Source: Squalus acanthias
Lineage: Eukaryota
DNA: 64,000 nt
Assembly: GCA_030390025.1 (NCBI GenBank)
Contig: JASTWF010000069.1
Coordinates: 248,001-312,000, forward strand
Direction: 5' to 3'
Shown: positions 12,684-49,700 of the stretch, one piece after another
Layout: every line of letters begins with the position of its first letter
Position numbering within the stretch: the first letter of the stretch is position 1
Notes under the pieces: model-generated
The model's database searches: none
Told to the model about the DNA's origin: nothing
What the model saw: only the letters and a program-made list of their open reading frames with translations
Position numbers and translations under genes: made by a program

Positions 12684-15600
12684 ATGGTAAAGGTTCTGAC
12701 TAAAGGTCTTCGACCTGAAACATTAACTCTGTTTTTCTCTCCACAGATGCTGTCTGGCCTGCTCAGTTTTTCCAGCATTTTCTGTTATTTCGGATTTCCA
12801 ACATCCGCTGTATTTTGCTGTTGTATATGTGATGGTCTCGGCGCTGCGGGGAGGGGAAGGACCGGCCTCCGGGACTCTGTGTGGCTCGAATCACAAATTC
12901 AGTCTCCACACAGCACAGATGTAACCAAGACCTTTCCAGGGTGTCAGGCTAACCTGCCGCGGTTTGATGTCTGGATGTTACAAACTGATATGGGCGGGGG
13001 GACTGGGGGCTCGGTCTGTCTCTCCGTCAATCTCCGGCTCTGAACACACGGACAGGAGGAGGAGCACTGAGAGAGACTGAGACTGAGAGAGCGACGTTAT
13101 CCTTTAAAAAGGGGGCACATGCTGATCCTTATATTGGGGTAGGAGAGAGAGAGAGAGAGAGAGACTGACTGACTGACTGACTGACTGGGAGAGGGGTTGT
13201 CGTGGCCCCCCCGTGTCCGCACTCCCACTCTGCCTCACCCAGTCAGTAAACTCACTGAGGCTCTTTCCCCACCCGGGGAGAGTCGCCCCGCGGGTAAAGG
13301 ACCGCTCACTGGGCGGGGTTAAAATCTCCTTTTTCTCCGCTGTGTTTTGGGTGTTTGAGCTGCTCTGAAAAGGGGGCGATTCTGTTCCATTCCTGTGCTT
13401 TGTGTCGTTGCCCCTGGGGCAGAGTCTCCTAAAGGGGCTGTTAGACAAGGCAACTCCTCACCAGGCGGAGGAGGGAGGGCGAGAGAAGTTTAAATCACAA
13501 AACTCTCAATTACAGCAAGTGGGACATTGGAGGAATTGGTGGGTGGAGACTCATTGATCGCCTGTCAATCATCACCCGGGGGAAATGACCCTGAGCAGGA
13601 GGAAGGAACTGTGCAAAGGCTTCACTCTGCTTTCTTGTTGCAGGGATCGAGCTTGCTGAACCTGCTGCTGCTGCTGCTGAATATTGCTGGGGTTTCGGGT
13701 AAGTGCTGTGACTCGAGTAACATTTCAGTTCAAGTGTCAGTGGTTGATTCGTTGGGTCAGTGTCGAAGCCTGGGGGTGTGTGTGTGGACCTCAGTCCCAA
13801 ATCCAGCGGCAGTTTGGCTCTCTTACTGCCAGTTAACCGCCAGTGTGGGTCATTGATATTAATTGCATCAGGAAATCCTCGAGTTTGGAAGCACTGTATG
13901 TACTGCCTGTGGGCCATTGAGGGAGTGGACACAGTAGGTGAACTGAGAGCTGAAAGGAAGGCAGGTAATGTCTTCAGATTAACCCCTGTGATGTGATCCG
14001 CTGCTTTTGGTTTGTTTGATTCAGCCATTCCCAGGCTTTGGGTTGTAGTAATAAAGGTAGTTCAATGAACACATTGAAAATGTTTGATGAAATGTAACAT
14101 CTTATTTTGGATATTAGAAATTTGCAACTGATGCATAAACTAAACAAACTTTAAAATCCAATTTGAAGTTTATTTGTTGTAAAGTGTGATGCTGAGGTGG
14201 TTTTGACATAAATGTTTACGTAGGGAATCTCCATTTTAAATCTTTCCCATTAAAAATTACAAAAGAAATAATTGCTTGGTATAGACGGGACTTGTCGCTA
14301 TAAATTATAAAATTCTCATCCTCGTGTTCAAATCCCTCCATGGCCCTCGCCCCTCCCTATCTCTGTAACCTCCTCCAACCCTTCCAGATCTCTGCGCTCC
14401 TCCAATTCCGGCCTCTTGCACATCCCCCGATTTCCATCGCTCCACCATTGGCGGCCGTGCCTTCAGCTGCCTGGGCCCCGAGCTCTGGAATTCCCTCCCT
14501 AAACCTCTCCGCCTCTCTCTCTCCTCCTTTAAGACTCTGCTTAAAACCTACATCTTTGACAGAGTGTTTGGTCACCTGTTATAATATCTCCTTATGTGGC
14601 TCGGTGTCAAATTTTATTCGTTGATCGCTGCTGTGAAGCTTGGAAACACAAGGCCAGAGAATGAATAACACCCGGGCTGAGAAAAAGGCCTTGTCTTATC
14701 AGGGTATGATGCGTTTCCAAACTGTCTGTTGTTCGTACATCGCCCTTTCCTCCACAGTTTCACTCACTCTAAAAATGCTAAGGGAAAGGATGCTATATAA
14801 ATGGTGCTTGTTGTAAATAGTACATGCCTGAGCTTCAGCCTTCCCACAGCAGTGAAAGCAGTGAGTTACTGGTCAGAGCTTCTTGCAGTGTATCCCTGTG
14901 AAGCTTGGGATGGAATGTTCCAGCAGGGAGGTTATATCTGAGGATAAATACTTTGAATCTTTTCCAGGTTCTTTGCCTGTCACAGTTTCTGGGTTCCTTG
15001 GGGAGCAGGTTGTGCTGCCCTGTACCTACAAAGGGAATGCCTCAGTCCCAGATTTACAAGTCATTTGGCGAATACCCGGGCCTGAAGTTGTCCACAAGTT
15101 TGTCGATGGGAGCGATGATTTGACACAGCAAGACCCGCGGTTCAGAAACAGAACAAACCTCTTCAAAGATCAACTGGAACACGGCAACTGGTCAGTTCTG
15201 CTCTCTGACCTCAGGCAGTCGGACCAGAACAAGTATGACTGTCTGATTTTCAGGAGGACGGGTGAGGGCTTTGATCAGGAGCAAGCTGTTCTCGTCCATC
15301 TCTCTGTAACAGGTGAGAGGTTTCTGTTTCAGGGCTTCTGCATTGATCAGGAGTCTGTTAGCAATTTTATGGGTATGATAGTGGAGCGGTTCTGTTACTA
15401 GATTAATAATCCAGAGAAGGTGAGTTCAAATCCCACCATGGCACTTTGAGAATTTGAGAATAAATCTGGAAATAAAAAGTTGGTATCAATAGAAGTGACC
15501 ATGAAGCTGTTGAATTGCCATAAAACCCAACTGGTTCACTGATGTCCTTCAGGGAAGGAAACCTGCCGTCCTTACCCGGTCTGGTCTATAGGTGACTCCA

Positions 15601-18600
15601 GTCCCACACCAACGTGGTTGGCTTTTCATGGCCCTCTGTGGCCCAGCAAGCCAATAAGTTTCTATCAAACCACTAGAAAGAATTTTACTGAATGGGCCAG
15701 GCCACAGCAAAGGCAAATCCAGCCCAGCCGACCCTGCAAAGTCCTCCTCACTAACACCTGGAAACTGGTGCCCAAGTTGGGAGAGCTGTGTGACATAGTC
15801 ATACTCCCAGAATCAACCCTACATCCCAGACTCCTCTATCACCATCCCCGGGTATGTCCTGTCCCACCGGAAGGACAGACCCACCAGAGGTGGGAGCTCA
15901 GTGGTATACAGTCGGGTGGGAGTGGCCCCGGGAGTCCTCAACATTGACTCTGAACCCCATGAAGTCTCACGGCTTCAGGTTAAACCTGGGCAAGGAAACC
16001 TCCTGCTGATTACCACCTACCGCCCTCCCTCGGTGGTTGAATCAGCACTCCTCCATGTTGAACACCACTTGGAGGAAGCACTGAGGGTAGCAAGGGCACA
16101 GAATGTATTGAGTGGGAGACTGCAATGTCCATCACCAAGGGTGGCTCGGTACCACCACTGACCGAGCTGGCTGAGCCCTGAAGGACAGAGCTGCCAAACT
16201 GGGTGATGGATGGAGTCAGTGGTGCTCTGAAGCTGCACTCACTCACCAGGAACGGGCTACATCTGTCTCCAGATGTTGGGGTGCAGGAGCTTGGGCCCAA
16301 AGCACCTCTGGAGCAGCCTTTAAAAGACCCAGTGCTCTTACCTTGAAGGTGTATCCCAGTAGGCCCAGGATCCTGTGGGAATGCACTCCACAGGCGGATG
16401 TAGGCTGCTGGGAACGATACTGCTCGGGGTAACTCTGGAAATCTTCCATTCTGCCCCTCAGTTAATGCAATCCTGTTGGATTTTTCACTCTGCCGACCCT
16501 GTTGCTGATCCTTCCTGATCAGTTTGACCCCAGTCTCGTTCCTCCCTGGATGTGTTTCCCTGCAGCCCTATAGAGTCTTTGAACATTTCTGCAGTTTGTT
16601 TCACAATACTAAACGCATGATGTTTTCTTTAGAGCGAGCCCGTTCACCTGTACCGAACACGCCCGCACCAGGTAAGTCTGTTTCTAAACTACTGCATGTG
16701 TTTTCAGCTCTTACATTCTATCGTGCGGGATAGACGGGCAGTAACACTGGAAGGTTTGAAATGCTGTTTGATATTTTGCCAAAGAATGATTCTGAGAGTG
16801 AGTGGTGTGGGTCACCGTTACCTGGAACTGCTCTTTAAACTACCTGCAATTGTTATTTCTGCTTCTGAGCCTCGCCTTCCTGTCCCTCAGCGGCTGAACT
16901 CTGAGGATTCCCGCTTCCCGCTAGCATTAGTGTTTGTGGAAGTCTGTGGGAAAGTCCGAGCCCTCCTGTCGGGAAACTGACGGGACAGGGTGCAACGCTG
17001 GTTGAAGTCACCGGAGAGTAATATTGGCCCAGCTGTGAAACCGGCGTTCCACCCGATCCCGTGCAAAGAGCCAATTGTAAAAGCATTTTGAGATTTCATT
17101 GGTTCAAAGTGTGACGCCGAGATGTTTCCATTTAAAAATGGCAAAAGAATGATGCCTGCCTCACACGGGACTTGTCATTCTAAATAGTACATGCCTGAGC
17201 TTCAGCCTTCCCACAGCAGTGAAAGCAGTGAGTTACTGGTCAGAGCTTCTTGCAGTGTATCCCTGTGAAGCTTGGGATGTAATGTTCCAGCAGGGAGGTT
17301 ATATCTGTGGATAAATACTTTGAATCTTTTCCAGGTTCTTTGCCTGTCACAGTTTCTGTGTTCCTTGGGGAGCAGGTTGTGCTGCCCTGTACCTACAAAG
17401 GGAATGCCCCCGTCCCAGATTTACAAGTCCTTTGGCAAATACCTGGGCCTGAAGTTGTCCACCAGTTTGTCGATGGGAGCGATGATTTGACACAGCAAGA
17501 CCCGCGGTTCAGAAACAGAACAAACCTCTTCAAAGATCAACTGGAACACGGCAACTGGTCAGTTCTGCTCTCTGACCTCAGGCAGTCCGACCAGAACGAG
17601 TATGAGTGTCTGATTTTCAGGAGGACGGGTGTGGATTTTCATTGGGAGCAAGATGTCTCCGTCCGTCTCTCTGTAACAGGTGAGAGGTTTCTGTTTCTGC
17701 ATTGATCAGGAATCTGTTAGCAATTTTATGGGTACGATAGTGCAGGGGTTCTGTTACTAGATTAATAATCCAGAGGCCTGGGCTCATAATCCAGAGAAGG
17801 TGAGTTCAGATCCCACCATGGCACTTTCAGAATTTGAGAATAAATCTGGAAATAAAACGTTGGCATCAATAGAAGTGACCCTGAAGCTGTTGGATTGCCG
17901 TCAAACTCAACTAGTTCACTGATGTCCTTTAGGGAAGGAAACCTGCCGTCCTTACCCGGTCTGGTCTATAGGTGACTCCAGTCCCACACCAACGTGGTTG
18001 ACTTTTCACGGCCCTCTGTGGCCCAGCAAGCCAATCAGTTTCTATCAAACCACTAGAAAGATAAACAAGAATTAAATTGGACGAGCCAGGCATTGAACCA
18101 GGACACAGGAAAGGCAAATCCAGCCCAGTCAACCCTGCAAAGTCCTCCTCACTAACATCTGGGGACTGGAGCCCAAGTTGGGAGAGCTGTGTGACATGGT
18201 CATACTCCCAGAATCAACCCTACATCCCAGACTCCTCCATCACCATCCCCGGGTATGTCCTGTCCCACCGGAAGGACAGACCCACCAGAGGTGGGGGCTC
18301 AGTGGTATACAGTCGGGTGGGAGTGGCCCCGGGAGTCCTCAACATTGACGACAATGGGGAATAATATTGGGCCGGGTGTGAAACCGGCGTTCCACCCGAT
18401 CCCAAGACTTCCCCGACCCACAGATTAGTTTAAAATTCCCCCTCTGTTTCAGCGGGCTGTTGGGTTTAATTGTAGGGAGGCTGCTGCTTGTCAGTCTCCA
18501 GTTATCTCTATCGGGAAGCCTGTATCGATCGCATTGTGGGGCAGTGTGTGTGTGTGTTCAAGGAGCTGTGGGCTGGCCTGGTGTGTGTGATTATTGGAAT

Positions 18601-21400
18601 CTAACCTCTCCCATCGCTCCGGGGCTAGAATTGACCAGGGATCTATTTGTGCTGGGGATGGTTCTGAAGCACTCGGTGCTGAAGGTCTCTGCTGTTAGTT
18701 TGTGAGTGTGTCCCGGTCTGTTAACGGTTTATTCTGTCTCTAGATCCTGGACTCTCTACTGGAGCAGCAGTCGCATTGGGGATCGGAATTCTTGCTCTTC
18801 TTACTCTTGCTGTCATTGGGGTTTTCCTGATCCGAAAGCGATGGTGGTGAGTTCTAGAATGTGCCGCAGTTTCCATTGTTGATTCTAGTTTTGTTCTATT
18901 ACACTTTGTGTTTAAAGATGTTGTGTGCAGCGATACACTTTGAGCTGTGTGCGATGCTTCAATGTAGCATTATCCCGTCACTTCCAGCTTGTTGTCATCT
19001 CTGTTGCTCCGTTCACTAGCCACCGACTCCATCCCTCTCCCTGGCCACTGTCTGAGGCTGAACCAGTTCACAACCTCGGTGTCTTATTAGACCCTGAGCT
19101 GAGCTTCCGACCCGTATCCTCCCCATCACCAAGACCGCCTACTGCCACCTCCGTAACATCGCCCGTCTCCGCCCCTACCTCAGCTCATCTGCTGCTGAAA
19201 CCCTCATCCATGCCTTACCGCAAAACGCGACCATTTCAAAACTCTCCTTTCTGTATCCTAACTCGCACCAAGTCCCGTTCACCCATCACCCTCTGTGTTC
19301 ACTGACCTACATTCATCCTCCTGTTCAAATCCCTCCGTGGCCTCCTCCAGCCCCACAATCCTTCGAGATCTCTGCGCTCCTCCAATTCTGGCCTCTTGAG
19401 CATCCCTGATTTCCATCGCTCCACCATTGGTGGCCGTGACATCAGCTGCCTGGGCCCTAAGCTCTGGAATTCCCTCCCTAAACCTCTCCGCCTCTCTCCT
19501 CCTTTAAGATGCTCCTTAAAACTGACCTATTTGAGCAAGCTTTTGGTCTCCTGCCCTAATATCTCCTTATGTGGCTCGCTGTCAAATTTTGTTTGATCGC
19601 TCCTGTGAAGCACCTTGGGCGATAAAGGCGCTATATAAATTCAAGTTGTTGCTCTATCTCCACTTGTGCTTACATTTTTCAAACCACCCCCTTGACCCGG
19701 CCATCAGTGATTCCGATCACTGAGAAGGCCATCCTGGATTTCCTTGTCTCCCTCAACATCCACCTCTCCCTGCCCATCTCTTACCCCCCACTTCCCCCTT
19801 TGCCCCCCGATGGGGAGAAGGAACTATTGCTGGGATCTCTAACTCTTCTCTGGTCTTTCCCCGTCACGATATTTCTGCCTCCGTTAGCCTGTTTGGCCAC
19901 TGCTAGAACAGGCTTGACCACATCAAGGAATACCATCTCCATCTGTGGCTCTCAGTACTTCAGGATCAGACTGGAGAGTACGGACATGCCCAACATCCTC
20001 CTGTCTGATCTGATCCCCATCATCTTTTACTCATTTACTAGAGTTCTTTGATGTAACGAGCAGGGTGGATAAAGGGGAACCAGTAGATGTAGTGTATTTG
20101 GATTTCCAGAAGGTATTCGATAAGGTGCCACATAAAAGGTTACTGCACAAGATAAGAGCTCACGGGGTTGGGGGTAATATATTAGCATGGATAGAGGATT
20201 GGCTAACTAACAGAAAACAGAGAGTTGGGATAAATGGGTCATTTTCTGGTTGGCAAACTGTAACTAGTGGGGTGCCACAGGGATCAGTGCTGGGGCCTCA
20301 AATATTTACAATCTGTATTAATGACTTGGATGAAGGGACCGTGTGTACTGTAGCCAAATTTGCTGATGATACAAAGATAGGTGGGAACACAAGTTGTGAG
20401 GAGGACACAGTCTGCAAAGAGATATGGATAGGCTAAGTGGGCAAAAATTTGGCAGATGGAGTATAATGTGGGAAAATGTGAGGTTATCCACTTTGGTAGG
20501 AAAAATAAAAAAGCAAATTATTATTTAAATAGAGAGAGACTACATAATGCTGCAGTACAGAGGGATCTGGAGGTCCTCATACATGAAACACAAAGTTAGC
20601 ATGCAGGTACAGCAAGTAATTAGGAAGGCAAATGGAATGTTGGCCTTTATTGCAAGGGGGATGGAGTATAAAAGTAGGGAAGTCTTGCTACAACTGTACA
20701 GGGCGCTGGTGAGACCACACCTGGAGTACTGCGTACAGTTTTGGTCTCCTTATTTAAGGAGGGATAGGGATATACTTGCATTGGAGGCAGTTCAGAGAAG
20801 GTTCACTAGGTTGATTCCTGGGATGAAGGGGTTGTCTTATGAAGAAAGGTTGAGCAGGTTGGGTCTATACTCATTGGAGTATCGAAGAATGAGAGGGGAT
20901 CTTATCGAAACATATAAGATTCTGAGGGGGCTCGACAGGGTAGATGCAGGGAGGATGTTTCCCCTCGTGGGGGAATCTAGAATTAGGGGGCACAGTTTCC
21001 GGATAAGGGGTCGCCCATTTAAAACAGAGATGAGGAGGAATTTCTTCTGAGGGTCGTGAATCTTTGGAATTCTCTACCCCAGAGAGCTGTGGAGGCTGGG
21101 TCATTGAATATATTCAAGGCGGAGATAGACAGATATTTCAGCTACAGGGGAGTCAAGGGTTATGGGGAGCGGGCGGGAACGTGGCATTAAGGCCAAGATC
21201 AGATCAGCCATGATCTTATTGAATGGCGGGGCAGGCTCGAGGGGTGGAATGGCCGACTCCTGATACTATTTCTTATGTTCTCATCAATTCTTTCTTAATC
21301 TCCAAAATTGAGGCTAGCTGTCATTTTTCTATTTCTCTGGTGCCTCAGGCAGCACGGGTCCTGTGGAGTGTACAGCTCCTGCCCATTGCCTCCCCTATAA
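12684..21400 (+). CDS. Gene A: B7/butyrophilin-like receptor with two IgV domains (leader-V-linker-V-TM-short tail), ~313 aa; join(12684-12686,13644-13698,14968-15312,16633-16671,17335-17679,18744-18846,21349-21400)
   Basis: All introns GT-AG with consistent phases (0,1,1,1,1,2); 942 nt with no internal stop. The ATG-only first exon and the last exon are the least certain parts. Confidence 0.75.
12689..12830 (+). mobile_element. ~140-bp Penelope-like terminal-repeat insert with a degenerate hammerhead-like core
   Basis: Flanked by a GATGGT duplication (12683-12688, 12831-12836). The empty site is seen in the inverted copy at ~28212-28240. Core reads CTGACTA..AGGTC-TTC-GACCT-GAAAC. Confidence 0.6.
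13143..13187 (+). repeat. (GA)n(GACT)n microsatellite
   Basis: Seen directly; much shorter in the paralogous intron at ~47204-47217. Confidence 0.9.
13644..13698 (+). CDS. Gene A signal-peptide exon (GSSLLNLLLLLLNIAGVS-G)
   Basis: ttcttgttgcag| ... TCGG|gtaagt; hydrophobic core encoded by (CTG)6; phase 0-1. Confidence 0.85.
14300..14812 (+). mobile_element. L2-like 3' fragment / composite insertion in the leader-V intron
   Basis: ggccgtgccttcagctgcctggg...ctctggaattccctccctaaacc motif; TAAAT at both ends; absent from the paralogous intron at ~17165-17195. Confidence 0.65.
14968..15312 (+). CDS. Gene A IgV exon V1 (B7/BTN-family V-set domain)
   Basis: tttccag|...ACAG|gtgaga, 345 nt, phase 1-1. 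B-strand Cys (LPCTY), C-strand Trp, QDPRFRNRTNLF...GNWSV and DQNKYDC match the VTCN1/CD276/HHLA2/BTN IgV pattern. Confidence 0.92.
15400..16200 (+). mobile_element. tRNA-headed SINE-like segment plus degenerate LINE endonuclease fragment
   Basis: gagttcaaatccc B-box-like motif; LVPKLGEL..DIVILPES and LLLITTYRPPS endonuclease-like motifs; repeated at ~17790-18350, ~34090-34345 and ~49430-49985. Confidence 0.6.
16633..16671 (+). CDS. Gene A 39-bp Pro-rich linker/stalk exon (ERARSPVPNTPAP-G)
   Basis: tgttttctttag| ... CCAG|gtaagt, phase 1-1. Confidence 0.8.
17335..17679 (+). CDS. Gene A IgV exon V2
   Basis: ttttccag|...ACAG|gtgaga, 345 nt; 14 aa differences from V1. Confidence 0.92.
18744..18846 (+). 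CDS. Gene A transmembrane exon (DPGLSTGAAVALGIGILALLTLAVIGVFLIRKRW)
   Basis: ttctgtctctag| ... TG|gtgagt; hydrophobic span followed by RKR stop-transfer; phase 1-2. Confidence 0.88.
19050..19652 (+). mobile_element. L2-like LINE 3' fragment
   Basis: acaacctcggtgtc..gaccctgagctgagc, and a tail ending taaaggcgctatataaat..agttgttg; paralogues at ~38625-39235 and ~50700-51315. Confidence 0.7.
20031..21280 (+). mobile_element. Degenerate 5'-truncated CR1 LINE
   Basis: [39 protein letters not shown] in broken frames; paralogues at ~39615-40870 and ~51695-52945. Confidence 0.9.
21349..21400 (+). CDS. Gene A putative cytoplasmic-tail exon (W-QHGSCGVYSSCPLPPL*)
   Basis: ttttctatttctctggtgcctcag| acceptor, phase 2; conserved in all three units; AATAAA at 21593-21598. 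Confidence 0.6.
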
Positions 21401-22410
21401 ACCTCCTCTCCTCTATACTCTGCTCCATCAACGTGCAGCTCCTGTGACACATTTTCCAGCTACCAGTGGTGCCCAGGATGTTGTGTAATTTAATCGGTCT
21501 GTGCTCCTGAACGGCTCCTTTACACACTTGTCCAAAGTGTTGGATCCTTTTAACGTAACCTGCACTCTGCTGGTTTCTCTCCTAGGAAACAAAATAAAGA
21601 CTCCAGCAATCCAGAAGCAGCATCTAATGGCGGCCCTTTGACAAACGTGCCTTGTTCGGATGAAGCACGGAGCCTTGTGACAACAGCAGCTGAGCATCAG
21701 ACTGGAGCGGCTGGAGAACAAAACCTTCTGGGGAATCTGGCTGTCCAGCGCTGACTGAGTTTACACTGCACTGTGCCTGGGTCAGGGAGGGGCCGACCAG
21801 CCCGGTATTGTGGTTATCATAGAATAGCACAGCACAGGAGGAGGCCATTCTATCGAGTGACTCCTGGAGGGAAGTCTGAGCTCAGGCTTGGGATCAGCAG
21901 TCACTTCCCCCTCTCACCAGCACAGTCTCAGAGGAGATAAGCTCCCAATGGAACTGTTGCCCCTTCACTAGAAAAACTGTCCAATCGGTATTTTATTCTA
22001 TGCATTATATCGCGGCATTACTGTGTCCAAGCTCAGTCTCGGGAACATCCAGGACCACCTTTAGCTGTGTAACCCATTGATCACTCCCTGTGAGAGATGG
22101 TAACTCCTAAATATCCCATCAATGAGCGGGAACAACAGGCACTTTCTGATTAATTTCTTTACTTGTTCAGGGTGTGGGTGGTGTTGGCAGGGCCCCATTT
22201 CTTGACCATCTCGACTTGAACCACTGCAGTCTTTGTAGCGATGGCGCTCCCACAGTGGGGAATGTGGGAAGAGGCTTCAGAACCTCCCTCTGCAGCATCA
22301 CTCACGAGCCAGAGCCAGCGACGACATCATTGCCAGCAACTGCTTTATATACAGAATTTATATTCCAGGTGTTTTACAGATTGAAACTGTCTACAGCAAA
22401 AAATTATGCA

Positions 22411-23805
22411 CTATTTAAAAAAGGAGGGAAAGAGAAAACCAGGAACTACAGCCTAACATCAGTAGTAGGGAAAATGCTAGTCTATTATAAAGGATGCGAT
22501 AACAGGACACTTAGAAAATATCAACGGGATTAGACAAAGTCAACATGGATTTATGAAAGGGAAATCGTGTTTGACAAACCTACTGGAATTTTTGAGGATG
22601 TAACTGGTAGAATAGATAAGGGAGAACCAGTGGATGTGGTGTATTTGGATTTTCAGAAGGCCTTTGATAAAGTCCCACATAAGAGGTTAGTGTGCAAAAT
22701 TAAAGCACATGGGATTGGGGGTAATATACTGGCATGGATTGAAAATTGGTTAACAGACAGGAAACACAGTAGGAATAAATGGGTCTTTTTCGGGGTGACT
22801 AGTGGGGTACCGCAGGGATCAGTGCTGGGGCCCCAGCTATTCACGATATATCAATGATTTGGATGAGGGAACCAAATGTAATATTTCCAACTTTGCTGAC
22901 AACACAAAACTAGGTGGGATTGTGAGGAGGATGCAAAGAGGCTTCAAGGTGATTTAGACAAGTTGAGTGAGTGGGCAAATACATGGCAGATGCAGTATAA
23001 CGTGCATAAATGTGAAGTTATTCACTTCGGTAGGAAAAACAAAGGTAGAGTATTATTTAAATGGTGATAGATTGGGAAATGCTGATGTGCAGAGGGACCT
23101 GGGTGTCCCTGTACACCAGTCACAGAAAGCAAACATGCAGGTGCAGCAAGCAGTTAGGAAGGCAAATGGTATGTTGGCCTTCATTGCAAGAGGATTTGAG
23201 TACAGGAGCAAGGATGTCTTGCTACAGTTGTACAGGGCCTTGGTGAGACCACACCTGGAGTAGTGTGTGCAGTTTTGGTCTCCTTACCTAAGAAAGGATA
23301 TACTTGCCATAGAGGGAGTGCAACGAAGGTTCACCTGACTGATTCCTGGGATGGCAGGACTGTCGTATGAGGAGAGATTGGGTCGACTAGGCCTGTATTC
23401 ACTAGCGTTTAGAAGAATGAGAGGGGATCTCATTGAAACGTATAAAATTCTGACAGGGCGAGACAGACTGGGTGCAGGGAGGATGTTTCCCTTGGCTGGG
23501 GGGTCTAGAACGAGGGGTCACAGTCTCAGGATACAGGGTAGGACATTTAGGACTGAGATGAGGAGAAATGTCTTCACTCAGAGGGTGGTGAACCTGTGGA
23601 ATTCTCCACCACAGAAGGCTGTGGAGGCCAAGTCACTGAATATATTTAAGTAGGAGACAGATAGATTTCTAGACGCAAAAGGCATCAAGGGGTATGGGGA
23701 GAGAGCGGGGATATGGTATTGAGATAGAGGATCAACCATGATCATATTGAATGATGGAGCAGGCTCAAAGGGCCTACTCCTGCTCCTATTTTTCTATGTT
23801 TCTAT
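22411..23805 (+). mobile_element. Degenerate CR1 LINE present in units A and C but not B
   Basis: RT motifs in broken frames; empty site at ~42260-42270; copy at ~54076-55470. Confidence 0.88.
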
Positions 23806-24764
23806 TTGAATATTGCTTGAAGTTTTCAATCCAAGCAGTGATTAAAGAGAAGTCGGTCTTTATATTTGTCAGTGGATGTATAGAATCATTAGAAGGACAC
23901 AGCCGAGACAGAGGCCTCTATTTATAAACCCATAGACCTGTACCTGGCCACTGGCTTTTAATGATTTGTGAACCTTGGACTCCCAAATCTCTCTGCTCTA
24001 CAGTTCCTCATCTCTCACTGTTTTATACACACAATTCATATTCTAAATATTTTACATATGTCGACACGACTGATACTGCCTTAGTGACCAAAAATTGTGT
24101 CTGTGTACGCGCACCAAATCCCAAGAATCTTTTTGACCGATCGTAACCATTCCCGGGAAAAGGGCATTCGGGGTCGGAGAGTTAGGCGATTTTCCCAACT
24201 ACTGCCCAGCGAATGCCCGTGAAATTCTTGTGCTGGTAAAAGGCCTGGTTGGGCCAGCATACACGTAGAGGCCCAGGAAGGCGAGTCTACGTGGATCCCG
24301 AGGAACCAGGTAGGCGCGGATTGTATTCGGGTTCGGAGGCATTTCCCCGCGGGAAACCTCCGACCGCAAATTCAGGCCCTTTGTATGAATAAATAAATGT
24401 ATATAATATGTCTGCCTTTCTCTCCTGTATACTGGAATGTCACTTTTCTATATGTACATTTTGAACCTGTGATTAAAGGGAAGCCCATGTTTATATGAGT
24501 GGATGTACAGTCTTGCTTTGTTTAAGGACCGAAAGCAGAGTAACGGTGAACGGTTGTTTTTCAGACTGGAGGGAGGTATACAGTGGTGTCCAAGGGCTTG
24601 CTGTTGGGACCACTGCTCTTTTGATGTATATTAATGACCTGGTCTTGGGTATACAGGGCATCATTTCAAAGTTTGCAGATGACACGGAACTCTGAAATAT
24701 AATAAGACAGCGAGATGGGGCAGGAACAGACTTCAGGAGGATCGAGAGCGAGACAGACTGAATC

Positions 24765-25940: not shown

Positions 25941-25949
25941 CCTGTGGGT

Positions 25950-32210: not shown

Positions 32211-32663
32211 TGACCCTCCGAGATCTCTGCGCTCCTCCAATTCTGGCCTCTAGCGCATCCCCCGATTTTAATCGCTACACCATTGGCAGCCGTGCCTTCA
32301 GCTGCCTGGGCCCTAAGCTCTGGAATTCCCTCCCTAAACCTCTCCGCCTCTCTCTCCTCCTTTAAGACCCTCCTTAAAACCTACCTCTTTGGCCAAGCGT
32401 TTGGTCACCTTTCCTAATATCTCCTTATCTGGCTCGGTGTCAAAATTTGTTTGATAATTGCTCCTGTGCAGCGTCTTGGGACGTTTTACTGCGTTAAAGG
32501 CACTATATAAATGGAAGTTGTTGTTGTTGTTTTGTTTCCTGTATTAATGGTGCTCAGCCAGAGATGGCGGTGTTGTCCAGCTCAACGGGCCAATGGTAAA
32601 CAGAGCACCAGCACCACCCGCTGGACGAAGGGCTGTATTGCAGGGACACCCTGGAGCAACATT

Positions 32664-35500: not shown

Positions 35501-35507
35501 GATTTAG

Positions 35508-38500
35508 AGCGAGCCCGTTCACCTGTACCGAACTAGCATTAGTGTTTGTGGAAGTCTGTGGGAAAGTCCGAGCCCTCCTGTCGGGAAACTGACGGGACAG
35601 GGTACAACGCTGGTTGAAGTCACCGGAGAGTAATATTGGGCCGGGTGTGAAACCGGCGTCCCACCCGATGCCCTGGCGTCCCCGACCCACAGATTAGTTT
35701 AAAATTCCCCCTCTGTTTCAGCGGGCTGTTGGGTTTAATTGTAGGGAGGCTGCTGCTTGTCAGTCTCCAGTTATCTCTATCGGAAAGCCTGTATCGATCG
35801 CATTGTGGGGCAGTGTGTGTGTGTTCAAGGAGCTGTGGGCTGGCCTGGTGTGTGTGTGATTATTGGAATCTAACCTCTCCCATCGCTCCGGGGCTAGAAT
35901 TGACCAGGGATCTATTTGTGCTGGGGATGGTTCTGAAGCACTCGGTGCTGGGGATGAGTGACCATAGTATGGTGGAGTTCTACATTAGGATGGAGAAGGA
36001 AACAGTTAAGTCAGAGACCATGGTCCAGAACTTAAATAAAGGCAACTTTGAGGGTATGAGGCGTGAATTGGCGAGGTTAAATTGGCAAGCGATATTTAAG
36101 GGGCTATCAGTGGAAGGGCAATGGCAGACATTTAGAGATCGCATGGATGAACTACAACAATTGTACATCCCGGTCTGGCATAAAAATAAAAAAGGGAAGG
36201 TGGCTCAACCATGGCTAACAAGGGAAATCAGGGATAGTATTAAAACCAAGGAAGTTGCATACAAATTGGCCAGAAGTAGCAGCAAACCCGGGGACTGGGA
36301 GAACTTCAAAACTCAGCAGAGGAGGACGAAGGGTTTGATTAGGGCAGGGAAAATAAAATATGAAAGGAAGCTTGCAGAGAACATTAAAATGGACTGCAAA
36401 AGCTTCTATAAATATGTAAAAAGAAAGAGGTTAGTAAAAACAAACGTAGGTCCCCTGCAGTCGGAAACAGGGGAAGTCGTAATGGGGAACAAGGAAATGG
36501 CAGATCAATTGAACAAGTACTTTGGTTCGGTGTTTACTGTGGAGGACACACACAACCTGCCGGAAATAAAAGGGGTCAGAGGATCTGGTAAGAGGGAGGA
36601 GCTGAGGGAAATCCTTATTAGTCGGGAAAAGGTATTGGGGAAATTGATGGGACTGAAGGCTGAAAAATCCCCGGGGCCTGATGGTCTGCATCCCAGAGTA
36701 CTTAAGGAGGTGGCCTTGGAAATAGTGGATGCATTGACGATCATTTTCCAACATTCCTTAGACTCTGGATCAGTTCCGATGGAGTGGAGGGTGGCCAATG
36801 TAACCCCTCTTTTTAAAAAAGGAGGGAGGGAGAAAGCAGGGAATTATAGACCGGTCAGCCTGACATCGGTCGTGGGTAAAATGATGGAAGCAATTATTAA
36901 AGATTTCATAACAGACCATTTGGAAAGTGGCGACATGATAGGTCCAAGTCAGCATGGATTTGTGAAAGGGAAATCATGCTTGACAAATCTTCTGGAATTT
37001 TTTGAGGATGTTTCCAATAGGGTGGACAGGGGGGAACCAGTAGATGTGGTGTATTTGGACTTTCAGAAGGCCTTCGACAAGGTCCCACACAAGAGATTGG
37101 TGAGCAAAGTTAAAGCACATGGGATTGGGGGTAATGTGTTGACGTGGATTGAGAACTGGTTGGCACACAGGAAACAAAGAGTAGGAGTAAATGGGTACTT
37201 TTCAGAATGGCAGGCAGTGACCAGCGGGGTACCGCAGGGTTCGGTGCTGGGACCCCAGCTGTTTACAATATATATTAATGATTTGGACGAAGGGATTAAA
37301 TGTAATATCTCCAAATTTGCGGATGACACTAAATTGGGAGGCAGTGTGAACAATGAGGAGGATGCTAGGAGGCTACAGAGTGACTTGGACAGGTTGGGTG
37401 AATGGGCAAATGTATGGCAGATGAAGTACAATGTGGATAAATGTGAGGTTATCCACTTTGGTGGTAAAAATAGAGAGGCGGACTATTACCTGAATGGTGG
37501 CAGATTAGGGAAAGGGGACGTGCAACGAGACCTGGGCATCATGGTACATCAGTCACTGAAGGTGGGAATGCAAGTGCAGCAGGCAGTCAAGAAAGCAAAC
37601 GGAATGATGGCCTTCATAGCAAGGGGATTTGAGTACAGGAGTAGGGAGGTGATGCTACAGTTGTACAGGGCCTTGGTGAGGCCACACCTGGAGTATTGTG
37701 CGCAGTTTTGGTCTCCTAACTTAAGGAAGGACATTCTTGCTATTGAGGGAGTGCAGCGAAGGTTCACTAGATTGATTCCTGGGATGGCCGGACTGACATA
37801 TCAAGAAAGATTGGGTCAACTGAACTTGTATCCTCTGGAGTTCAGAAGAATGAGGGGGGATCTTATAGAGACATTTAAAATCCTGACTGGTTTAGACAAA
37901 TTAGATGCGGGCAGAATGTTCCCAATGGTAGGGAAAACTAGAACCAGGGGTCACAGTCTAAGGATTAAGGGGAAGCCATTTAGGACTGAGCTGAGGAGGA
38001 ACTTCTTCACCCAGAGAGTGGTGAATCTATGGAATTCTCTTCCACAGAAGGTTGTTGAGGCCAGTTCGCTAAATATATTCAAAAGGGAGTTAGATATAAC
38101 ACTCACAACTAAGGGGATCAAGGGGTATGGCGAGAAAGCAGGAATGGGGTACTGAGGTAGCATGTTCAGCCATGAACGCATTGAATGGCGGTGCAGGCTC
38201 GAAGGACCGAATGGTCTACTCCTGTACCTATTTTCTATGTTTCTATGTTTCTATGAAGGTCTCTGCTGTTAGTTTTGTGAGTGTGTCCCGGTCTGTTAAT
38301 GGTTTATTCTGTCTCTAGATCCTGGACTCTCTACTGGAGCAGCAGTTGGATTGGGAATCGGAATTCTTACTCTTCTTACTCTTGCTGTCATTGGGGTTTT
38401 CCTGATCCGAAAGCGACGGTGGTGAGTTCTAGAATGTGCCGCAGTTTCCATTGTTGATTCTAGTTTTGTTCTATTACACTTTGTGTTTAAAGATGTTGTA

Positions 38501-40989
38501 TGCAGCGATACACTTTGAGCTGTGTGCGATGCTTCAATGTAGCATTATCCCGTCACTTCCAGCTTGTTGTCATCTCTGTTGCTCCGTTCACTAGCCACCG
38601 ACTCCATCCCTCTCCCTGGCCACTGTCTGAGGCTGAACCAGTTCACAACCTCGGTGTCTTATTAGACCCTGAGCTGAGCTTCCGACCCGTATCCTCTCCA
38701 TCACCAAGACCGCCTACTTCCACCTCCGTAACATCGCCCGTCTCCGCCCCTACCTCAGCTCATCTGCTGCTGAAACCCTCATCCATGCCTTATCGCAAAA
38801 CTTGACCATTCCAAAACTCTCCTTTCTGTATCCTAACTCACACCAAGTCCCGTTCACCCATCACCCTCTGTGTTCACTGACCTACATTCATCCTCATGTT
38901 CAAATCCCTCCATGGCCTCCTCCAGCCCCACAACCCTCCGAGATCTCTGCACTCCTCCAATTCTGGCCTCTTGAGCATCCCTGATTTCCATCGCTCCACC
39001 ATTGGCGGCCGTGCCTTCAGCCGCCTGGACCCGAAGGTCTGGAATTCCCTCCCTAAACCTCTCCGCCTCTCTCTCTCCTCCTTTAAGATGCTCCTTAAAA
39101 CCTACCTCTTTGACCAAGTTTTTGGTCGCCTGTCCTAATATCTCCTTATGTGGCTCGCTGTCAAATTTTGTTTGATAATCGCTCCTGTGAAGCACCTTGG
39201 GCGATAAAGGCGCTATATAAATTCAAGTTGTTGCTCTATCTCCACTTGCGCTTAAATTTTTCAAACCACCCCCTTGACCCAGCCATCAGTGATTCCAATC
39301 ACTGAGAAGACCATCCTGGATTTCCTCGTCTCCCTCAACATCCACCTCTCCCTGCCCACCTCTTACCCCCCCCCACTTCCCCCTTTGCCCCCCGATGGGG
39401 AGAAGGAACTATTGCTGGGATCTCTAACTCTTCTCTGGTCTTTCCCCGTCACGATATTTCTGCCTCCGTTAGCCTGTTTGGCCACTGCTAGAACAGGCTT
39501 GACCACATCAAGAAATACCATCTCCATCTGTGGCTCTCAGTACTTCAGGATCAGCCTGGAGAGTACGGACATGCCCAACATCCTCCTGTCTGATCTGATC
39601 CCCATCATCTTTTACTCATTTACTAGAGTTCTTTGATGTAACGAGCAGGGTGGATAAAGGCGAACCAGTAGATGTAGTGTATTTGGATTTCCAGAAGGTA
39701 TTCGATAAGGTGCCACATAAAAGGTTACTGCACAAGATAAGAGCTCACGGGGTTGGGGGTAATATATTAGCATGGATAGAGGATTGGCTAACTAACAGAA
39801 AAGAGAGAGTTGGGATAAATGGGTCATTTTCTGGTTGGCAAACTGTAACTAGTGGGGTGCCACAGGGATCAGTGCTGGGTCCTCAACTATTTACAACCTA
39901 TATTAATGACTTGGATGAAGGGACCGTGTGTAATGTAGCCAAATTTGCTGATGATACAAAGATAGGTGGGAACACAAGTTGTGAGGAGGACACAGAGTCT
40001 GCAAAGGGATATGGATAGGCTAAGTGAGTGGGCAAAAATTTGGCAGATGGAGTATAATGTGGGAAAATGTGAGGTTATCTACTTTGGGGGGAAAAATAAA
40101 AAAGCAAATTATTTAAATGGAGAGAGACTACATAATGCTGCGGTACAGAGGGATCTGGGGGTCCTCATACATGAAACACAAAGTTATCATGCAGGTACAG
40201 CAAGTAATTAGGAAGGCAAATGGAATGTTGGCCTTTATTGCAAGGGGGATGGAGTATAAAAGTAGGGAAGTCTTGCTACAACTGTACAGGGCGCTGGTGA
40301 GACCACACCTGGAGTACTGCGTGCAGTTTTGGTCTCCTTATTTAAGGAGGGATAGGGATATACTTGCATTGGAGGCAGTTCAGAGAAGGTTCACTAGGTT
40401 AATTCCTGGGATGAAGGGGTTGTCTTATGAAGAAAGGTTGAGCAGGTTGGGTCTATACTCATTGGAGTTTAGAAGAATGAGAGGCGCTCTTATTGAAACG
40501 TTTAAGATTCTGAGGGGGCTCGACAGGGTAGATGCAGGGAGGATTTTTCCCCTCATGGGGGTATCTAGAATTTGGGGACACAGTTTCCGGATAAGGGGTC
40601 GCCCATTTAAAACGGAGATGAGGAGGAATTTCTTCTCTGAGGTTCGTGAATCTTTGGAATTCTCCACCCCAGAGAGCTGTGGAGGCTGGGTCATTGAATA
40701 TATTCAAGGTGGAGATAGACAGATATTTCAGCTACAGGGGAGTCGAGGGTTATGGGGAGCGGGCGGGAACGTGGCATTCAGGCCAAGATCAGATCAGCCA
40801 TGATCTTATTGAATGGTGGGGCAGGCTCGAGGGGTGGAATGGCCGACTCCTGATCCTATTTCTTATGTTCTCATCAATTCTTCTTAATCTCCAAAATTGA
40901 GGCTAGCTGTCATTTTTCTATTTCTCTGGTGCCTCAGGCAGCACGGGTCCTGTGGAGTGTACAGCTCCTGCCCATTGCCTCCCCTATAA
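35508..40989 (+). pseudogene. Relic receptor gene B: broken linker exon (35508-35536), TM exon (38319-38421), tail exon (40938-40989); no leader or V exon
   Basis: ag|AGCGAGCCCGTTCACCTGTACCGAAC-TAG (donor deleted); TM DPGLSTGAAVGLGIGILTLLTLAVIGVFLIRKRR; tail identical to gene A. Confidence 0.8.
35951..38255 (+). mobile_element. Young 5'-truncated CR1 LINE with an uninterrupted RT frame
   Basis: Open frame to 38155 (SDH..., KSPGPDG, DFQKAFD, FADD), (TTTCTATG)n tail; exact empty site ctcggtgctg|aaggtctc at ~18680 and ~50310. Confidence 0.95.
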
Positions 40990-41611
40990 ACCTCCTCTCC
41001 TCTACACTCTGTGCTCCATCAACGTGCAGCTCCTGTGACACATTTTCCAGCTACCAGTGGTGCCCAGGATGTTGTGTAATTTAATCGGTCTGCGCTCCTG
41101 AACGGCTCCTTTACACACTTGTCCAAAGTGTTGGATCCTTTTAACGTAACCTGCACTCTGCTGGTTTCTCTCCTAGGAAACAAAATAGAGACTCCAGCAA
41201 TCCAGAAGCAGCACCTACTGACGACCCTTTGACAAACGTGCCTTGTTCGGATGAAGCACGGGGCCTTGTGACAACAGCAGCTGAGCATCAGAATGGAGCG
41301 GCTGGAGAACAAAACCTTCCGGGGAACCTGGCTGTCCAGCACTGACTGAGCTTAGACACTAATGCCGCGATATACAATAGAATAAAATAACGATCGGACA
41401 GCTTTTCTAGTGAAGGGGCAACACTTCCATTGGGAGCATATCTCCTCTGAGACTGTGCTGGTGAGAGGGGGAAGTGACTGCTGATCCCAATCCTGAGCTG
41501 AGACTTTGCTCCAGGAGTCACTCGATAGAATGGCCTCCTTCTGTGCTGTGCTATTCTATGATTCTATGATTACCACAATACCGGGCTGCTCTGCCCCTCC
41601 CTGACCCAGGC

Positions 41612-45249: not shown

Positions 45250-46160
45250 TACACACAGCAAGGTCCCACAAACAGCACTGAGATAAATGACCAGTTAATC
45301 TGTTTTGGATGTTGCCTGAGGGATAAATATTGGCCTGAGGACACCGGGGAGAACTCCCCTGCTCTTCTTTGAAATGATGGCCGTCCACCCGAGAGGCCTT
45401 GTTTAACGTTTCATCTGAAAGACGGCACCTCCGACAGTGCGGCCCTGCCTCAGTACTGCCCCTCTGACAGTGTGGCGCTCCCTCAGTTCTGCCCCTCTGA
45501 CAGTGCGGAGCTCCCTCAGTACTGCCACTCCGACAGTGCGGTGCTCCCTCAGTACTGCTCCTCCGACAGTGCGGCGCTCCCTCAGTACTGCCCCTCCGAC
45601 AGTGCGGCACTCCCTCAGTACTGCCCCTCTGACAGTGCGGTGCTCCCTCAGTACTGCCCCTCCGACAGTGCGGCGCTCCCTCAGTACTGCCCCTCCGACA
45701 GTGCAGCGCTCCCTCAGTACTGCCCCTCCGACAGTGCAGCGCTCCCTCAGTACTGCCCCTCCGACAGTGCGGCGCTCCCTCTGTACCGCCCCTCCGACAG
45801 TGCAGCGCTCCCTCAGTACTGCCCCTCCGACAGTGCGGCGCTCCCTCTGTACCGCCCCTCCGACAGTGCGGTGCTCCCTCAGTACTGCTCCTCCGACAGT
45901 GCAGCGCTCCCTCAGTACTGCCCCTCCGACAGTGCGGCGCTCCCTCTGTACTGCCCCTCCGACAGTGCGGTGCTCCCTCAGTACTGCCCCTCCGATAGTG
46001 CGGCGCTCCCTCTGTACCGCCCCTCCGACAGTGCGGCGCTCCCTCAGTACTGCCCCTCCGACAGTGCAGCGCTCCCTCAGTACTGCCCCTCCGACAGTGC
46101 GGCGCTCCCTCAGTACCGCCCCTCCGACAGTCCCTCAGTACTGCCTCTCCGACAGTGCAT
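45250..46160 (-). repeat. Deu-SINE fragment plus 33-bp minisatellite (~22 units, 45428-46160)
   Basis: Same unit and context as 11536-12190. Confidence 0.9.
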
Positions 46161-46307
46161 CGCTCCCATCGACAAACTTGTGCAAAACTTCATGCTCCGC
46201 TATTCGCCAAACTACTTGTAAATCTGGGACTGGGGCATTCCCTTTGTAGGTACAGGGCCGCACAACCTGCTCCCCAAGGAACACAGAAACTCTGACAGGC
46301 AAAGAAC
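46158..46307 (-). pseudogene. Truncated IgV pseudo-exon (psiV2), inverted, upstream of gene C
   Basis: ttccag|GSLPVRVSVFLGEQVVRPCTYKGNAPVPDLQVVWRIAEHEVLHKFVDGSD, then minisatellite. Confidence 0.9.
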
Positions 46308-46742: not shown

Positions 46743-49700
46743 ATGGTAAAGGTTCTGACGAAAGGTCCTCGACCTGAAACATTAACTCTGTTTTTCTCTC
46801 CACAGATGCTGTCTGGCCTGCTGAGTTTTTCCAGCATTTTTTGTTGTTATTTCGGATTTCCAACATCCGCTGTATTTTGCTGTTGTATATGTGATGGTCT
46901 CGGCGCTGCGGGGAGGGAGAGACCGGCCTCCGGGACTCTGTGTGGCTCGAATCACAAATTCAGTCTCCACACAGCACAGATGTAACCAAGACCTTTACAG
47001 GGTGTCAGGCTAACCTGCCGCGGTTTGATGTCTGGATGCTGCAAACTGATATGGGCGGGGGGACTGGGGGCTCGGTCTGTCTCTCCGTCAATCTCCGGCT
47101 CTGAACACAGGGACAGGAGGAGGAGCACTGAGAGAGACTGAGACTGAGAGAGCGACGTTATCCTTTAAAAAGGGGGCACATGCTGATCCTTAAATTAGGG
47201 TAAGAGAGAGACTGACTGGGAGAGGGGTTGTCGTGGCCTCCCGTGTCCGCACTCCCACTCTGCCTCATCCAGTCAGTAAACTCACTGAGGCTCTTTCCCC
47301 ACCCGGGTTAAGGGCCGCTCACTGGGCGGGGTTAAAATCTCCTTTTTCTCCGCTGTGTTTTGGGTGTTTGAGCTGCTCTGAAAAGGGGGCGATTCTGTTC
47401 CATTCCTGTGCTTTGTGTCGCTGCCCCTGGGGCAGTGTCTCCTAAAGGGGCTGTTAGACAAGGCAACTCCTCACCAGGCGGAGGAGGGAGGGCGAGAGAA
47501 GTTTAAATCACAAAACTCTCAATTACAGCAAGTGGGACATTGGAGGAATTGGAGACTCATTGATCGCCTGTCAATCATCACCCGGGAGCAATGACCCTGA
47601 GCAGGAGGAAGGAACTGTGCAAAGGCTTCACTCTGCTTTCTTGTTGCAGGGATCGAGCTTGCTGAACCTGCTGCTGCTGCTGCTGCTGCTGAATACTGCT
47701 GGGGTTTCAGGTAAGTGCTGTGACTCGAGTAACATTTCAGTTCAAGTGTCAGTGGTTGATTCGTTGGGTCAGTGTCGAAGCCTGGGTGTGTGTGTGGACC
47801 TCAGTCCCAAATCCAGCGGCAGTTTGGCTCTCTTACTGCCAGTTAACCGCCAGTGTGGGTCATTGATATTAATTGCATCAGGAAATCCTCGAGTTTGGAA
47901 GCACTGTATGTACTGCCTGTGGGCCATTGAGGGAGTGGACACAGTAGGTGAGCTGAGAGCTGAAAGGAAGGCAGGTAATGTCTTCAGATTAACCCCTGTG
48001 ATGTGATCCGCTGCTTTTGGTTCGTTTGATTCAGCCATTCCCAGGCTTTGGGTTGTAGTAATAAAGATAGTTCAATGAACACATTGAAAATGTCTGATGA
48101 AACATAACATCTTATTTTGGACATTAGAAATTTGCAACTGATGCATAAACTAAACAAACTTTAAAATCCAATTTGAAGTTTATCTGTTGGAAAGTGTGAT
48201 GCTGAGGTGGTTTTGACATTATAAATGTTTACGCAGGGAATCTCCATTTTAAATCTTTCCCATTTAAAAATTACAGAAGAAATAATTGCTTGGCATACAC
48301 GGGACTTGTCGCTATAAATTATAAAATTCTCATCCTCGTGTTTAAATCCCTCCATGGCCCTCGCCCCTCCCTATCTCTGTCACCTCCTCCAACCCTTCCA
48401 GATCTCTGCGCTCCTCCAATTCTGGCCTCTTGCGCATCCCCCGATTTCCATCGCTCCACCATTGGCGGCCGTGCCTTCAGCTGCCTGGGCCCCAAGCTCT
48501 GGAATTCCCTCTCTCTCCTCTAAGATGCTGCTTAGAACCGACCTCTTTGACAGAGCGTTTGGTCACCTGTTATAATATCTCCTTATATGGCTTGGTGTCA
48601 AAATTTATTCGTTGATCGCTGCTGTGAAGCCTGGAAACACAAGGCCAGAAAATGAATAACACCCGGGCTGAGAAAAAGGCCTTGTCTTATCAGGGTATGA
48701 TGCGTTTCCAAACTGTCTGTTGTTCGTACATCGCCCTTTCCTCCACAGTTTCTCTCACTCTGAAAATGCTCAGGGAAAGGATGCTCAGGGAAAGGATGCT
48801 ATATAAATGGTGCTTGTTGTAAATAGTACATGCCTGAGCTTCAGCCTTCCCACAGCAGTGAAAGCAGTGAGTTACTGGTCAGAGCTTCTTGCAGTGTAAC
48901 CCTGTGAAGTTTGGGATGTAATGTCCCAGCAGAGAGGTTATATCTGTGGATAAATACTTTCAATCTTTTCCAGGTTCTTCGCCTGTCACAGTTTCTGGGT
49001 TCCTTGGGGGGCAGGTTGTGCTGCCCTGTACCTACAAAGGGAATGCCCCAGTCCCAGATTTACAAGTACTTTGGCAAATATCCGAGCGTGAAGTTTTGCA
49101 CCAGTTTGTCAATGGGAACGATGATTTGACACAGCAAGACCCGCGGTTCAGAAACAGAACAAACCTCTTCAAAGATCAACTGGAACACGGCAACTGGTCA
49201 GTTCTGCTCTCTGACCTCAGGCAGTCCGACCAGAACGAGTATGAGTGTCTGATTTTCAGGAGGACGCGTGTGGTCTTTTATTGGGTGCAAGATGTCTCAG
49301 TCCTTCTCTCTCTAACAGGTGAGGTTTCTGTTTCTGCATTGATCAGGAGTCTGTCAGCAATTTTATGGGTACGATAGTGCAGGGGTTCTGTTACTAGATT
49401 AATAATCCAGAGGCCTGGGCTCATAATCCAGAGAAGGTGAGTTCAAATCCCACCATGGCACTTTGAGAATTTGAGAATAAATCTGCAAATAAAAAGTTGG
49501 TATCAAAAGAAGTGACCCTGAAGCTGTTGGATTGTCGTCAAACCCAACTGGTTCACTAATGTCCCTTAGGGAAGGAAACCTGCCATCCTTACCCGGTCTG
49601 GTCTATAGGTGACTCCAGTCCCACACCAACATGGTTGACTTTTCACGGCCCTCTGTGGCCCAGCAAGTCAATCAGTTTCTATCAAACCACTAGAAAGATA

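Follow-up and report, generated by a model that had tools for sequence, protein, structure and literature searches.

The three V exons (V1, V2 and V3) found in a 64,000-nucleotide stretch of Squalus acanthias DNA (the window, to which all coordinates refer) encode the ectodomains of two genes, A and B. These belong to a multigene family of sharks whose copies exchange DNA and whose products are B7-like membrane proteins built on IgV alone. Diversifying selection likely acts on the predicted partner-binding front sheet of these domains (strands C, C', F and G), the probable driver being an arms race with pathogen proteins that would bind there; this reading is given a probability of about 0.65. 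Family transcripts are spliced, the copies are mosaics of exchanged segments, the expansions are lineage-specific, and the variation is concentrated on the front sheet.

Change on the predicted binding face outpaces that in adjacent non-coding DNA, and a preference of selection for new binding surfaces is the likely reason. New point mutations on this face would be favoured and then reshuffled among paralogues by germline gene conversion, and the back sheet and the C''-D-E core would be kept constrained and homogenised. The typical B7 ligand is single-copy and keeps its receptor-binding face conserved. An IgV-only offshoot that is found across sharks, has expanded repeatedly and has diversified this very face suggests an as yet unrecognized antagonist or a variable receptor in the most ancient immune system of jawed vertebrates, and its V copies are natural variants with which to search for the partner.

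Organization of genes A and B and of their decayed copies

Both genes lie on the + strand and follow the layout leader-V(-stalk-V)-TM-tail, with IgV as the sole ectodomain type. Gene A comprises a leader (signal peptide) exon (13644..13698), V1 (14968..15312), a 39-nt proline-rich stalk exon (16633..16671), V2 (17335..17679), a transmembrane exon (18744..18846) and a cytoplasmic exon (21586..21754). Gene B has a leader exon (47650..47710), the single IgV exon V3 (48974..49318), a transmembrane exon (50374..50479) differing from that of gene A at 8/105 nt and by one extra codon, and a cytoplasmic exon (53251..53419) identical to its counterpart (0/171 nt differ). An orphan module, also on the + strand, contains TM and tail exons without a V exon of its own (38319..41345; TM 38319-38421, tail 41177-41345).

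The putative start codon of gene A (12684..12686) is placed at the end of the first exon, where ATG is followed by a GT donor and CCAAT/GC-box-like motifs lie upstream, and that of gene B (46743..46745) is placed likewise. Both positions, and the splicing of the first exon, are inferred from a recurring element present 0.9-2.1 kb upstream of five of six leader exons, in the right orientation and with an open frame. A search of 800 kb for a first exon encoding the MDG..Q start seen in leaders of other sharks gave no match.

Each V exon is a 345-nt phase-1/1 exon with AG/GT ends. Spliced ends of family transcripts join leader to V (runs X4 and X6), stalk to V (X1 and X6) and V straight to TM (X1 and X6). 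GT..AG joints from the gene A stalk exon to the TM exon and from TM to tail were seen in all four probable RNA runs, whose status as RNA is a guess supported by these joints only, no run being recorded as RNA. The G strand is encoded within the V exon, the end of which is a splice donor used in transcripts. The only cysteines of the V domain are the canonical Cys19 and Cys92. No IgC-like frame occurs in the introns, and the shark homologues likewise contain V domains only. The spliced tail is short (~57 residues), ends in a stop and carries no B30.2 domain; its C-terminal motif is conserved across sharks, and tyrosine is absent from the tails of both genes. An arginine in the TM of gene B sits at the edge of the 20-residue hydrophobic stretch.

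The contig contains ten open V exons, one frameshifted and eleven truncated; no leader exon was found in the units of four of the ten open ones. Apart from other Ig-type exons, no marker genes were found in the 800 kb examined. At least ten truncated pseudo-V exons break off directly behind the C' strand, and many of them lie inverted next to putative promoters. One of them (12187..12335, minus strand), covering strands A to C' with a one-base deletion, is cut by a 33-bp minisatellite detected with TRF (11714..12196; twin array at 45428-46131), to which it is fused, and a second (46158..46307, minus strand) has the same right breakpoint.

Fold and location of the variable positions

The B7-type IgV fold proposed in the sequence-only reading is borne out by Pfam V-set matches above the cut-off for the V exons, by the best PDB sequence matches of the domain (B7-H3, B7-H4, MOG and PD-L1) and by the best structural matches of the predicted model, CD86 (Z 17.0, rmsd 1.3) and ICOS-L (Z 16.9).

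That reading had described variation clustered on the C-C' and F-G face around an invariant core. Its observations on V1-V3 were accurate: all six quoted motifs are present, the identical 39-residue block (positions 50-88) is the longest such block and contains one nucleotide difference, and the hand count for V1 against V2 is exact (16 nonsynonymous (N) and 5 synonymous (S) changes; 14 amino-acid differences, nine from position 89 on). The 16:5 count is by itself neutral, because N and S sites stand at 264:78, but the clustering exceeds chance once the seven further open copies are added. Among the ten copies, C-C'/F-G carries 31 N variants at 105 N sites, as compared with 16/158 elsewhere (p=2.7e-4), and the seven copies outside the window show the same on their own (21/105 vs 13/159, p=0.008). 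The core, invariant in V1-V3, is not so among ten copies, where positions 47-87 carry 7 N and 4 S variants.

With residues assigned inward or outward by strand alternation rather than model coordinates, 13/17 outward front positions vary among the ten copies, as opposed to 2/17 inward and 1/11 outward back positions (Fisher p=4e-4 and 1e-3). Within-species variability in seven other sharks tracks the same profile (Spearman 0.55, p=2e-10), reaching 0.52 on the outward front and 0.12 on the outward back. The back sheet bears two N-glycan sequons. To bind its receptor, ICOS-L uses strands C and F together with the CC', C'D and FG loops (PMC7545189).

Gene conversion and tests of selection

The V copies swap DNA with one another and with broken copies, and conversion is heavy. 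Of the informative site pairs, 37% are incompatible, both in the exon and in the introns, while simulations that lack conversion give 0.03 (0/25 as high); the nearest-neighbour copy switches from segment to segment. A PHI-like test was not significant (p=0.14). Truncated and intact exons have 15 polymorphisms in common and no fixed differences. In chicken immunoglobulin loci, pseudogenes serve as gene-conversion donors. A similar arrangement here is a doubtful proposal, in which at least ten truncated pseudo-V exons would be a candidate donor library for the C-C' half, the F-G half would vary through positive selection and exchange among intact copies, and the whole would form an undescribed B7-derived, germline-diversified shark family.

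Heavy conversion was overlooked when site models of the M7/M8 type were suggested as the check for selection. Both M1a/M2a and M7/M8 are significant (LRT 17.2-17.4), but they were rejected as proof on neutral simulations with conversion, which give an LRT of at least 5.99 in 10/24 cases and of at least 17.2 in 2/24, as opposed to 0/8 without conversion. The M1a/M2a result (LRT 17.2) is thus unreliable because of the conversion, and the M2a solution, which has two classes (0/3.7), marks all variable sites.

Diversifying selection, which neither these models nor the 16:5 count can establish, is made likely by conversion-aware tests, all of them covering paralogues of a single genome. The front region has 31 N variants at 105 sites, whereas flanking intron and silent sites together show 63/497, a ratio of 2.3 when flanking intron is taken as unconstrained; the ratio is 2.4 in the seven non-window copies and unchanged without CpG changes, so that CpG hypermutability is rejected as the sole cause of the excess. 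Against coalescent nulls that include conversion, this excess has a p of between 0 and 0.018, weakening to ~0.05 in two of three conversion settings when post-hoc choice of the best 28-codon window is allowed for. Partitioned omega is 2.8 for F-G, 2.8 for C-C' and 0.8 for the rest, and simulations of neutrality plus conversion reach 2.8 in 0/64 cases for F-G and 1/64 for C-C'. These tests support an omega of ~2.8 on the front face, less strongly after post-hoc correction. Outward front-sheet positions do vary, as had been claimed for the binding face; the F-G signal is solid, while the evidence for C-C' is mixed.

An unlikely alternative is that the front face lost a conserved receptor and drifts neutrally (omega ~1, perhaps with a local hotspot), conversion homogenising the core. 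It agrees with the overall pairwise pN/pS of 1.07, where no region is significant (F-G 1.65, bootstrap p=0.13), with a conserved core like that common to B7 proteins such as PD-L1 and B7-H4, with the borderline post-hoc p and with the abundance of decayed modules (7 V-bearing units as against 15 TM and 17 tail exons). Inside the front region alone, N against S is also not significant (31 vs 6, p=0.26). In C-C' the N density matches the S density (0.22 vs 0.28), and a mutational hotspot there is possible because the truncated pseudo-copies, too, vary more in C-C' (19/51 vs 14/84, p=0.016); however, pseudogene-private changes are not significantly denser in it (9/51 vs 9/84, p=0.20). Drift alone would rarely produce the 2.3-fold front excess, which persists after CpG removal, or the F-G omega. 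A far less probable explanation is that tandem joining of allelic haplotypes or chimeras on an unplaced contig produced some of the copies, making the mosaic partly artificial. The contig is repeat-rich, and 19049-32248 and 50708-64000 are 98.7-99.7% identical, but 23/40 variants listed from four independent runs recur among the assembled copies, which occur in both orientations with different flanks, and other sharks also have multi-copy clusters. Treating V2 and V3 as alleles would leave unexplained a divergence of 6% in the exon (21/345 nt) against 2% in the TM-tail intron (53/2737).

Relatives, possible partners and known systems

Selection for new binding surfaces could also come from a variable host receptor, a sub-case of the selection claim that is possible, if rather unlikely. 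Paralogues would then use the CFG face, in butyrophilin-like or Skint fashion, to engage shark lymphocyte receptors that carry different germline V segments. This is consistent with the B7-superfamily fold of the model, which has BTN and MOG among its structural neighbours, and with the reported binding of a Vgamma4 TCR by the BTNL3 IgV domain (PMC6868513), and the conserved tail without a tyrosine motif fits a ligand better than a signalling receptor. Against it stand the lack of B30.2 and IgC domains, the turnover of copies in each shark lineage without stable orthologue classes, and the constant mixing of the face by conversion, which would suit escape better than fixed pairing. A pathogen binder is moderately preferred as the driver, since a fixed host receptor (CD28 or ICOS) would conserve the front face.

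In its IgV fold (Z 15.7-17.0) and sequence (21-30% identity) the family resembles CD86 (B7-2), ICOS-L, PD-L1, B7-H4 and B7-H3, but unlike canonical B7 ligands it lacks IgC, is multi-copy and has a hypervariable rather than conserved predicted receptor-binding face. Butyrophilin/BTNL proteins differ in having IgC and a cytoplasmic B30.2. Paired ITIM/ITAM receptors of the CEACAM, Siglec and CD300 type differ from the products of genes A and B, which have neither tail tyrosine motifs nor a charged residue within the TM, and rearranging antigen-receptor V genes differ in their split V/J, the G strand here being inside the V exon.

Chicken BG (PMC5043582) is another multigene family of the B7 superfamily whose members have IgV only and trade segments among paralogues; it forms disulfide-linked dimers, swaps cassettes in CDR1/CDR2-equivalent loops and has a heptad-repeat tail. 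The shark variation lies instead on the front sheet and F-G hairpin, with no CDR1-loop cysteine and a short non-repeat tail. Primate CEACAM N-domains also combine an IgV domain, rapid evolution and recurrent gene conversion, and their diversification alters binding by bacterial adhesins (PMC8860441). They belong to the CEA family rather than B7 and, unlike the postulated partners of the shark family, their partners were shown experimentally; paired receptors with ITIM/ITAM were not seen in the shark cluster. The evolution of BG and CEACAM is paralleled in a third lineage.

Sharks were the only source of relatives found; their expansions are specific to lineages, and in the tree the copies fall together mostly according to lineage. 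The homologue search matches included no ray, chimaera or bony-fish member, which is weak evidence, and a profile search of 518-2000-aa proteins gave no further member. The literature search found no paper describing a shark IgV-only B7-like family, and the consulted parts of PMC11599192, PMC12151841 and PMC10751288 do not mention it, although their supplements may list these loci.

Automatic shark models of the same family contain a leader, one or two IgV domains, an optional Pro-rich stalk, a TM and the conserved tail. Their names are inconsistent best-match labels, at least six misleading ones for a single family, among them 'CD276 antigen homolog' for Pristiophorus japonicus P0001 (76% identity), 'myelin-oligodendrocyte glycoprotein-like' in Heterodontus, and elsewhere 'ICOS ligand-like', 'CD86-like' and 'sodium channel subunit beta-4-like'. 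A canonical V+C B7-like gene is present elsewhere in the same genome (C2295), with 37% identity in V.

The V exons and their genes

The three V exons lie exactly where the sequence-only reading had placed them (V1 at 14968–15312, V2 at 17335–17679, V3 at 48974–49318), and its 39-residue identical block, all six quoted motifs and the hand count for V1 and V2 (16 nonsynonymous and 5 silent changes, 14 amino acid differences, nine from position 89 on, numbered from the Gly whose codon straddles the first splice site) are equally exact. Gene A has the order leader-V1-stalk-V2-TM-tail and gene B leader-V3-TM-tail, both open throughout with no stop; neither contains an IgC domain, a B30.2 domain or a tyrosine in the tail. 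The start codon is probably provided by a putative ATG-plus-donor element found upstream of five of the six leaders. Family transcripts are spliced: GT..AG joints between TM and tail and between stalk and TM occur in all four probable RNA runs (contigs, two studies), and leader-V, stalk-V and V-TM spliced ends in two runs each, which is evidence for the family as a whole rather than for exactly these copies.

The gene B TM exon (50374–50479) differs from that of gene A in 8 of 105 nucleotides, most of them changing residues, and gains one codon as well as His, Arg and Pro residues; the tail exons of the two genes, by contrast, are identical. The leader poly-Leu (13644–13698, and in other leader exons) is a CTG repeat encoding ~2–8 Leu across paralogues and runs; its variable length may alter secretion. 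The intron end ahead of each V exon (14926–14967) is conserved across sharks and kept in truncated copies, and its equivalent appears to be translated in gene models of Rhincodon and Cetorhinus (P0030, P0012, P0043).

Front-face variation, DNA exchange and probable diversifying selection

Variation had been proposed to cluster on the C-C' and F-G face around an invariant core. Among the 10 open V exons, nonsynonymous variants occupy 31/105 sites in C-C' plus F-G and 16/158 elsewhere (p = 2.7e-4), and silent variants show no such enrichment (6/30 versus 7/49, p = 0.37). Outward positions of the front vary in 13/17 cases and inward ones in 2/17, the sides being assigned from strand alternation around Trp34, Phe45 and Cys92 rather than from model coordinates; since outward back-sheet positions vary in 1/11, the pattern is not merely one of a variable surface. 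The core varies less, at 0.57 times the baseline (p = 0.10), a modest constraint within the genome studied, and it resembles the general B7 core. The within-species profile of seven other sharks (at least four domains each) agrees with that of this genome (rho 0.55). Four sequencing runs gave 40 listed variants (of 49), none inside 17465–17582; 17 are new relative to the assembled copies. Taken one at a time against V2, 14 of these are nonsynonymous, including one that creates a stop, and 9/14 fall in the front region.

By the four-gamete test, about 37% of informative site pairs are incompatible, equally so in V exon and introns; simulations without conversion yielded a fraction of 0.03 and reached the observed value in 0/25. 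The V exon requires at least nine recombination events, and the nearest-neighbour copy switches between segments. A PHI-like test gave no significant result (p = 0.14), which would follow if nearby sites are densely incompatible too. Ten truncated copies, pseudogenes given the stop codon, frameshift and cysteine loss among them, end at the identical base, fused to a 33-bp minisatellite, and have several different left junctions. Across the 148 nt compared, 15 polymorphisms are common to these copies and the intact V exons, and no difference is fixed; if truncation arose only once, they have therefore exchanged DNA with the intact exons.

The suggested site models gave an LRT of 17.2, but neutral data with conversion matched it in 2/24 simulations. 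Tests less sensitive to recombination were the nonsynonymous density against an intron-plus-silent baseline (63/497) and partitioned omega. The front-region density is 2.3 times this baseline, a ratio that holds when CpG changes are removed and when only the seven copies outside the window are used. All-neutral coalescents with conversion give p = 0.005 (1313 runs), 0.018 (221) and 0 (91) for this excess, and 0.047, 0.050 and 0 for the best 28-codon window, picked post hoc. Omega is 2.8 for F-G, 2.8 for C-C' and 0.8 for the rest, values attained by neutral simulations in 0/64 (F-G) and 1/64 (C-C'). The 16:5 ratio of V1 and V2 is the neutral expectation for an exon of ~264 nonsynonymous and ~78 silent sites. 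Against selection, pairwise pN/pS is not significant, nor is nonsynonymous versus silent inside the front region (p = 0.26); in C-C' the per-site densities of silent and replacement variants are alike, and C-C' is also variable in the truncated pseudo-copies. Diversifying selection on the V domains, as the earlier reading had proposed, has a probability of about 0.65, firmest for F-G and mixed for C-C'.

A shark family with a B7-like fold

Named relatives all come from sharks, and the homologue search returned 46 hits, 45 shark proteins of common architecture under many differing automatic names and one distant bony-fish protein. In a tree of 65 V domains, Heterodontus copies form one group (98/88) and those of this genome join Pristiophorus (100/99), with many forks unresolved. 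The AlphaFold model (pLDDT 91; strands C 30–36, C' 40–46, F 88–98, G 101–112) has its closest structural counterparts in CD86 (Z 17.0, rmsd 1.3) and ICOS-L (Z 16.9), PD-L1, B7-H4 and MOG following within one Z unit. The family falls outside canonical B7, BTN and BG by their membership tests. It resembles chicken BG, an IgV-only B7 offshoot with segmental exchange (PMC5043582); no description of the shark family was found in the open-access literature searched. Elsewhere in the genome (G000:C2295:134149–134481, piece L023; L106:2521–2838) lies a canonical B7-like gene in which a V exon with 37% identity to V2 precedes an IgC-like exon; it is a candidate for the parent lineage of the family.

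Duplication, DNA exchange and front-face variation are observed in this family, and positive selection is supported. A binder of the front face would drive its change and conversion would recombine C-C' and F-G variants, each segment having nine distinct protein sequences among 10 copies, while the back sheet with its two N-glycan sequons would remain fixed. In ICOS-L the binding surface comprises strands C and F together with the CC', C'D and FG loops (PMC7545189). By analogy with CEACAM N-domains (PMC8860441), we favour a pathogen protein as the putative binder; pathogens do target B7 domains, as the structural matches include a poxvirus protein bound to B7-2. The main rival is a variable host receptor, BTNL-style.

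The cluster on contig C3542 and its neighbours

Contig C3542 of the 3.7-Gb genome, on which the window sits, was read over bases 1–800,000 of 1,686,105. This part holds 10 open, one frameshifted and 11 truncated V exons as well as 6 leader, 15 TM and 17 tail exons; both strands are represented, and the whole is a birth-and-death cluster; 4/10 open V exons belong to units with no detected leader. With 150/181 candidates of a genome search scored, close V copies are confined to 10–672 kb of the contig and the best match beyond them has 37% identity.

Orphan TM-plus-tail modules without V exons occur at 38319–41345 of the window and elsewhere on the contig, the V-less surplus being 8 TM and 10 tail exons beyond seven V-bearing units; other sharks also have V-less gene models (P0069–P0071), without a Pfam domain. 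A 13-kb segment of the window is present twice (19049–32248 and 50708–64000, 98.7–99.7% identity); it either duplicated very recently or represents two alleles assembled as separate copies. Interspersed on the contig is a second IgV family (525005–525334, 576586–576768, 751686–752027, 765544–765885), which we take to be Siglec/CD22-like by its motifs. At 717888–724782 the contig carries long frames of retroviral appearance, one of which has an Ig-like motif close to its start. At 1596–7695 (minus strand) the window has a GC-rich element of LINE type with frames of the ORF1-like and endonuclease/reverse-transcriptase kinds. Further large clusters of V-set exons, ~30–35% identical to V2, are located on C16 (52.1–52.7 Mb), C26 (5.4–7.6 Mb), C3806 and C4 (43.4–43.9 Mb).
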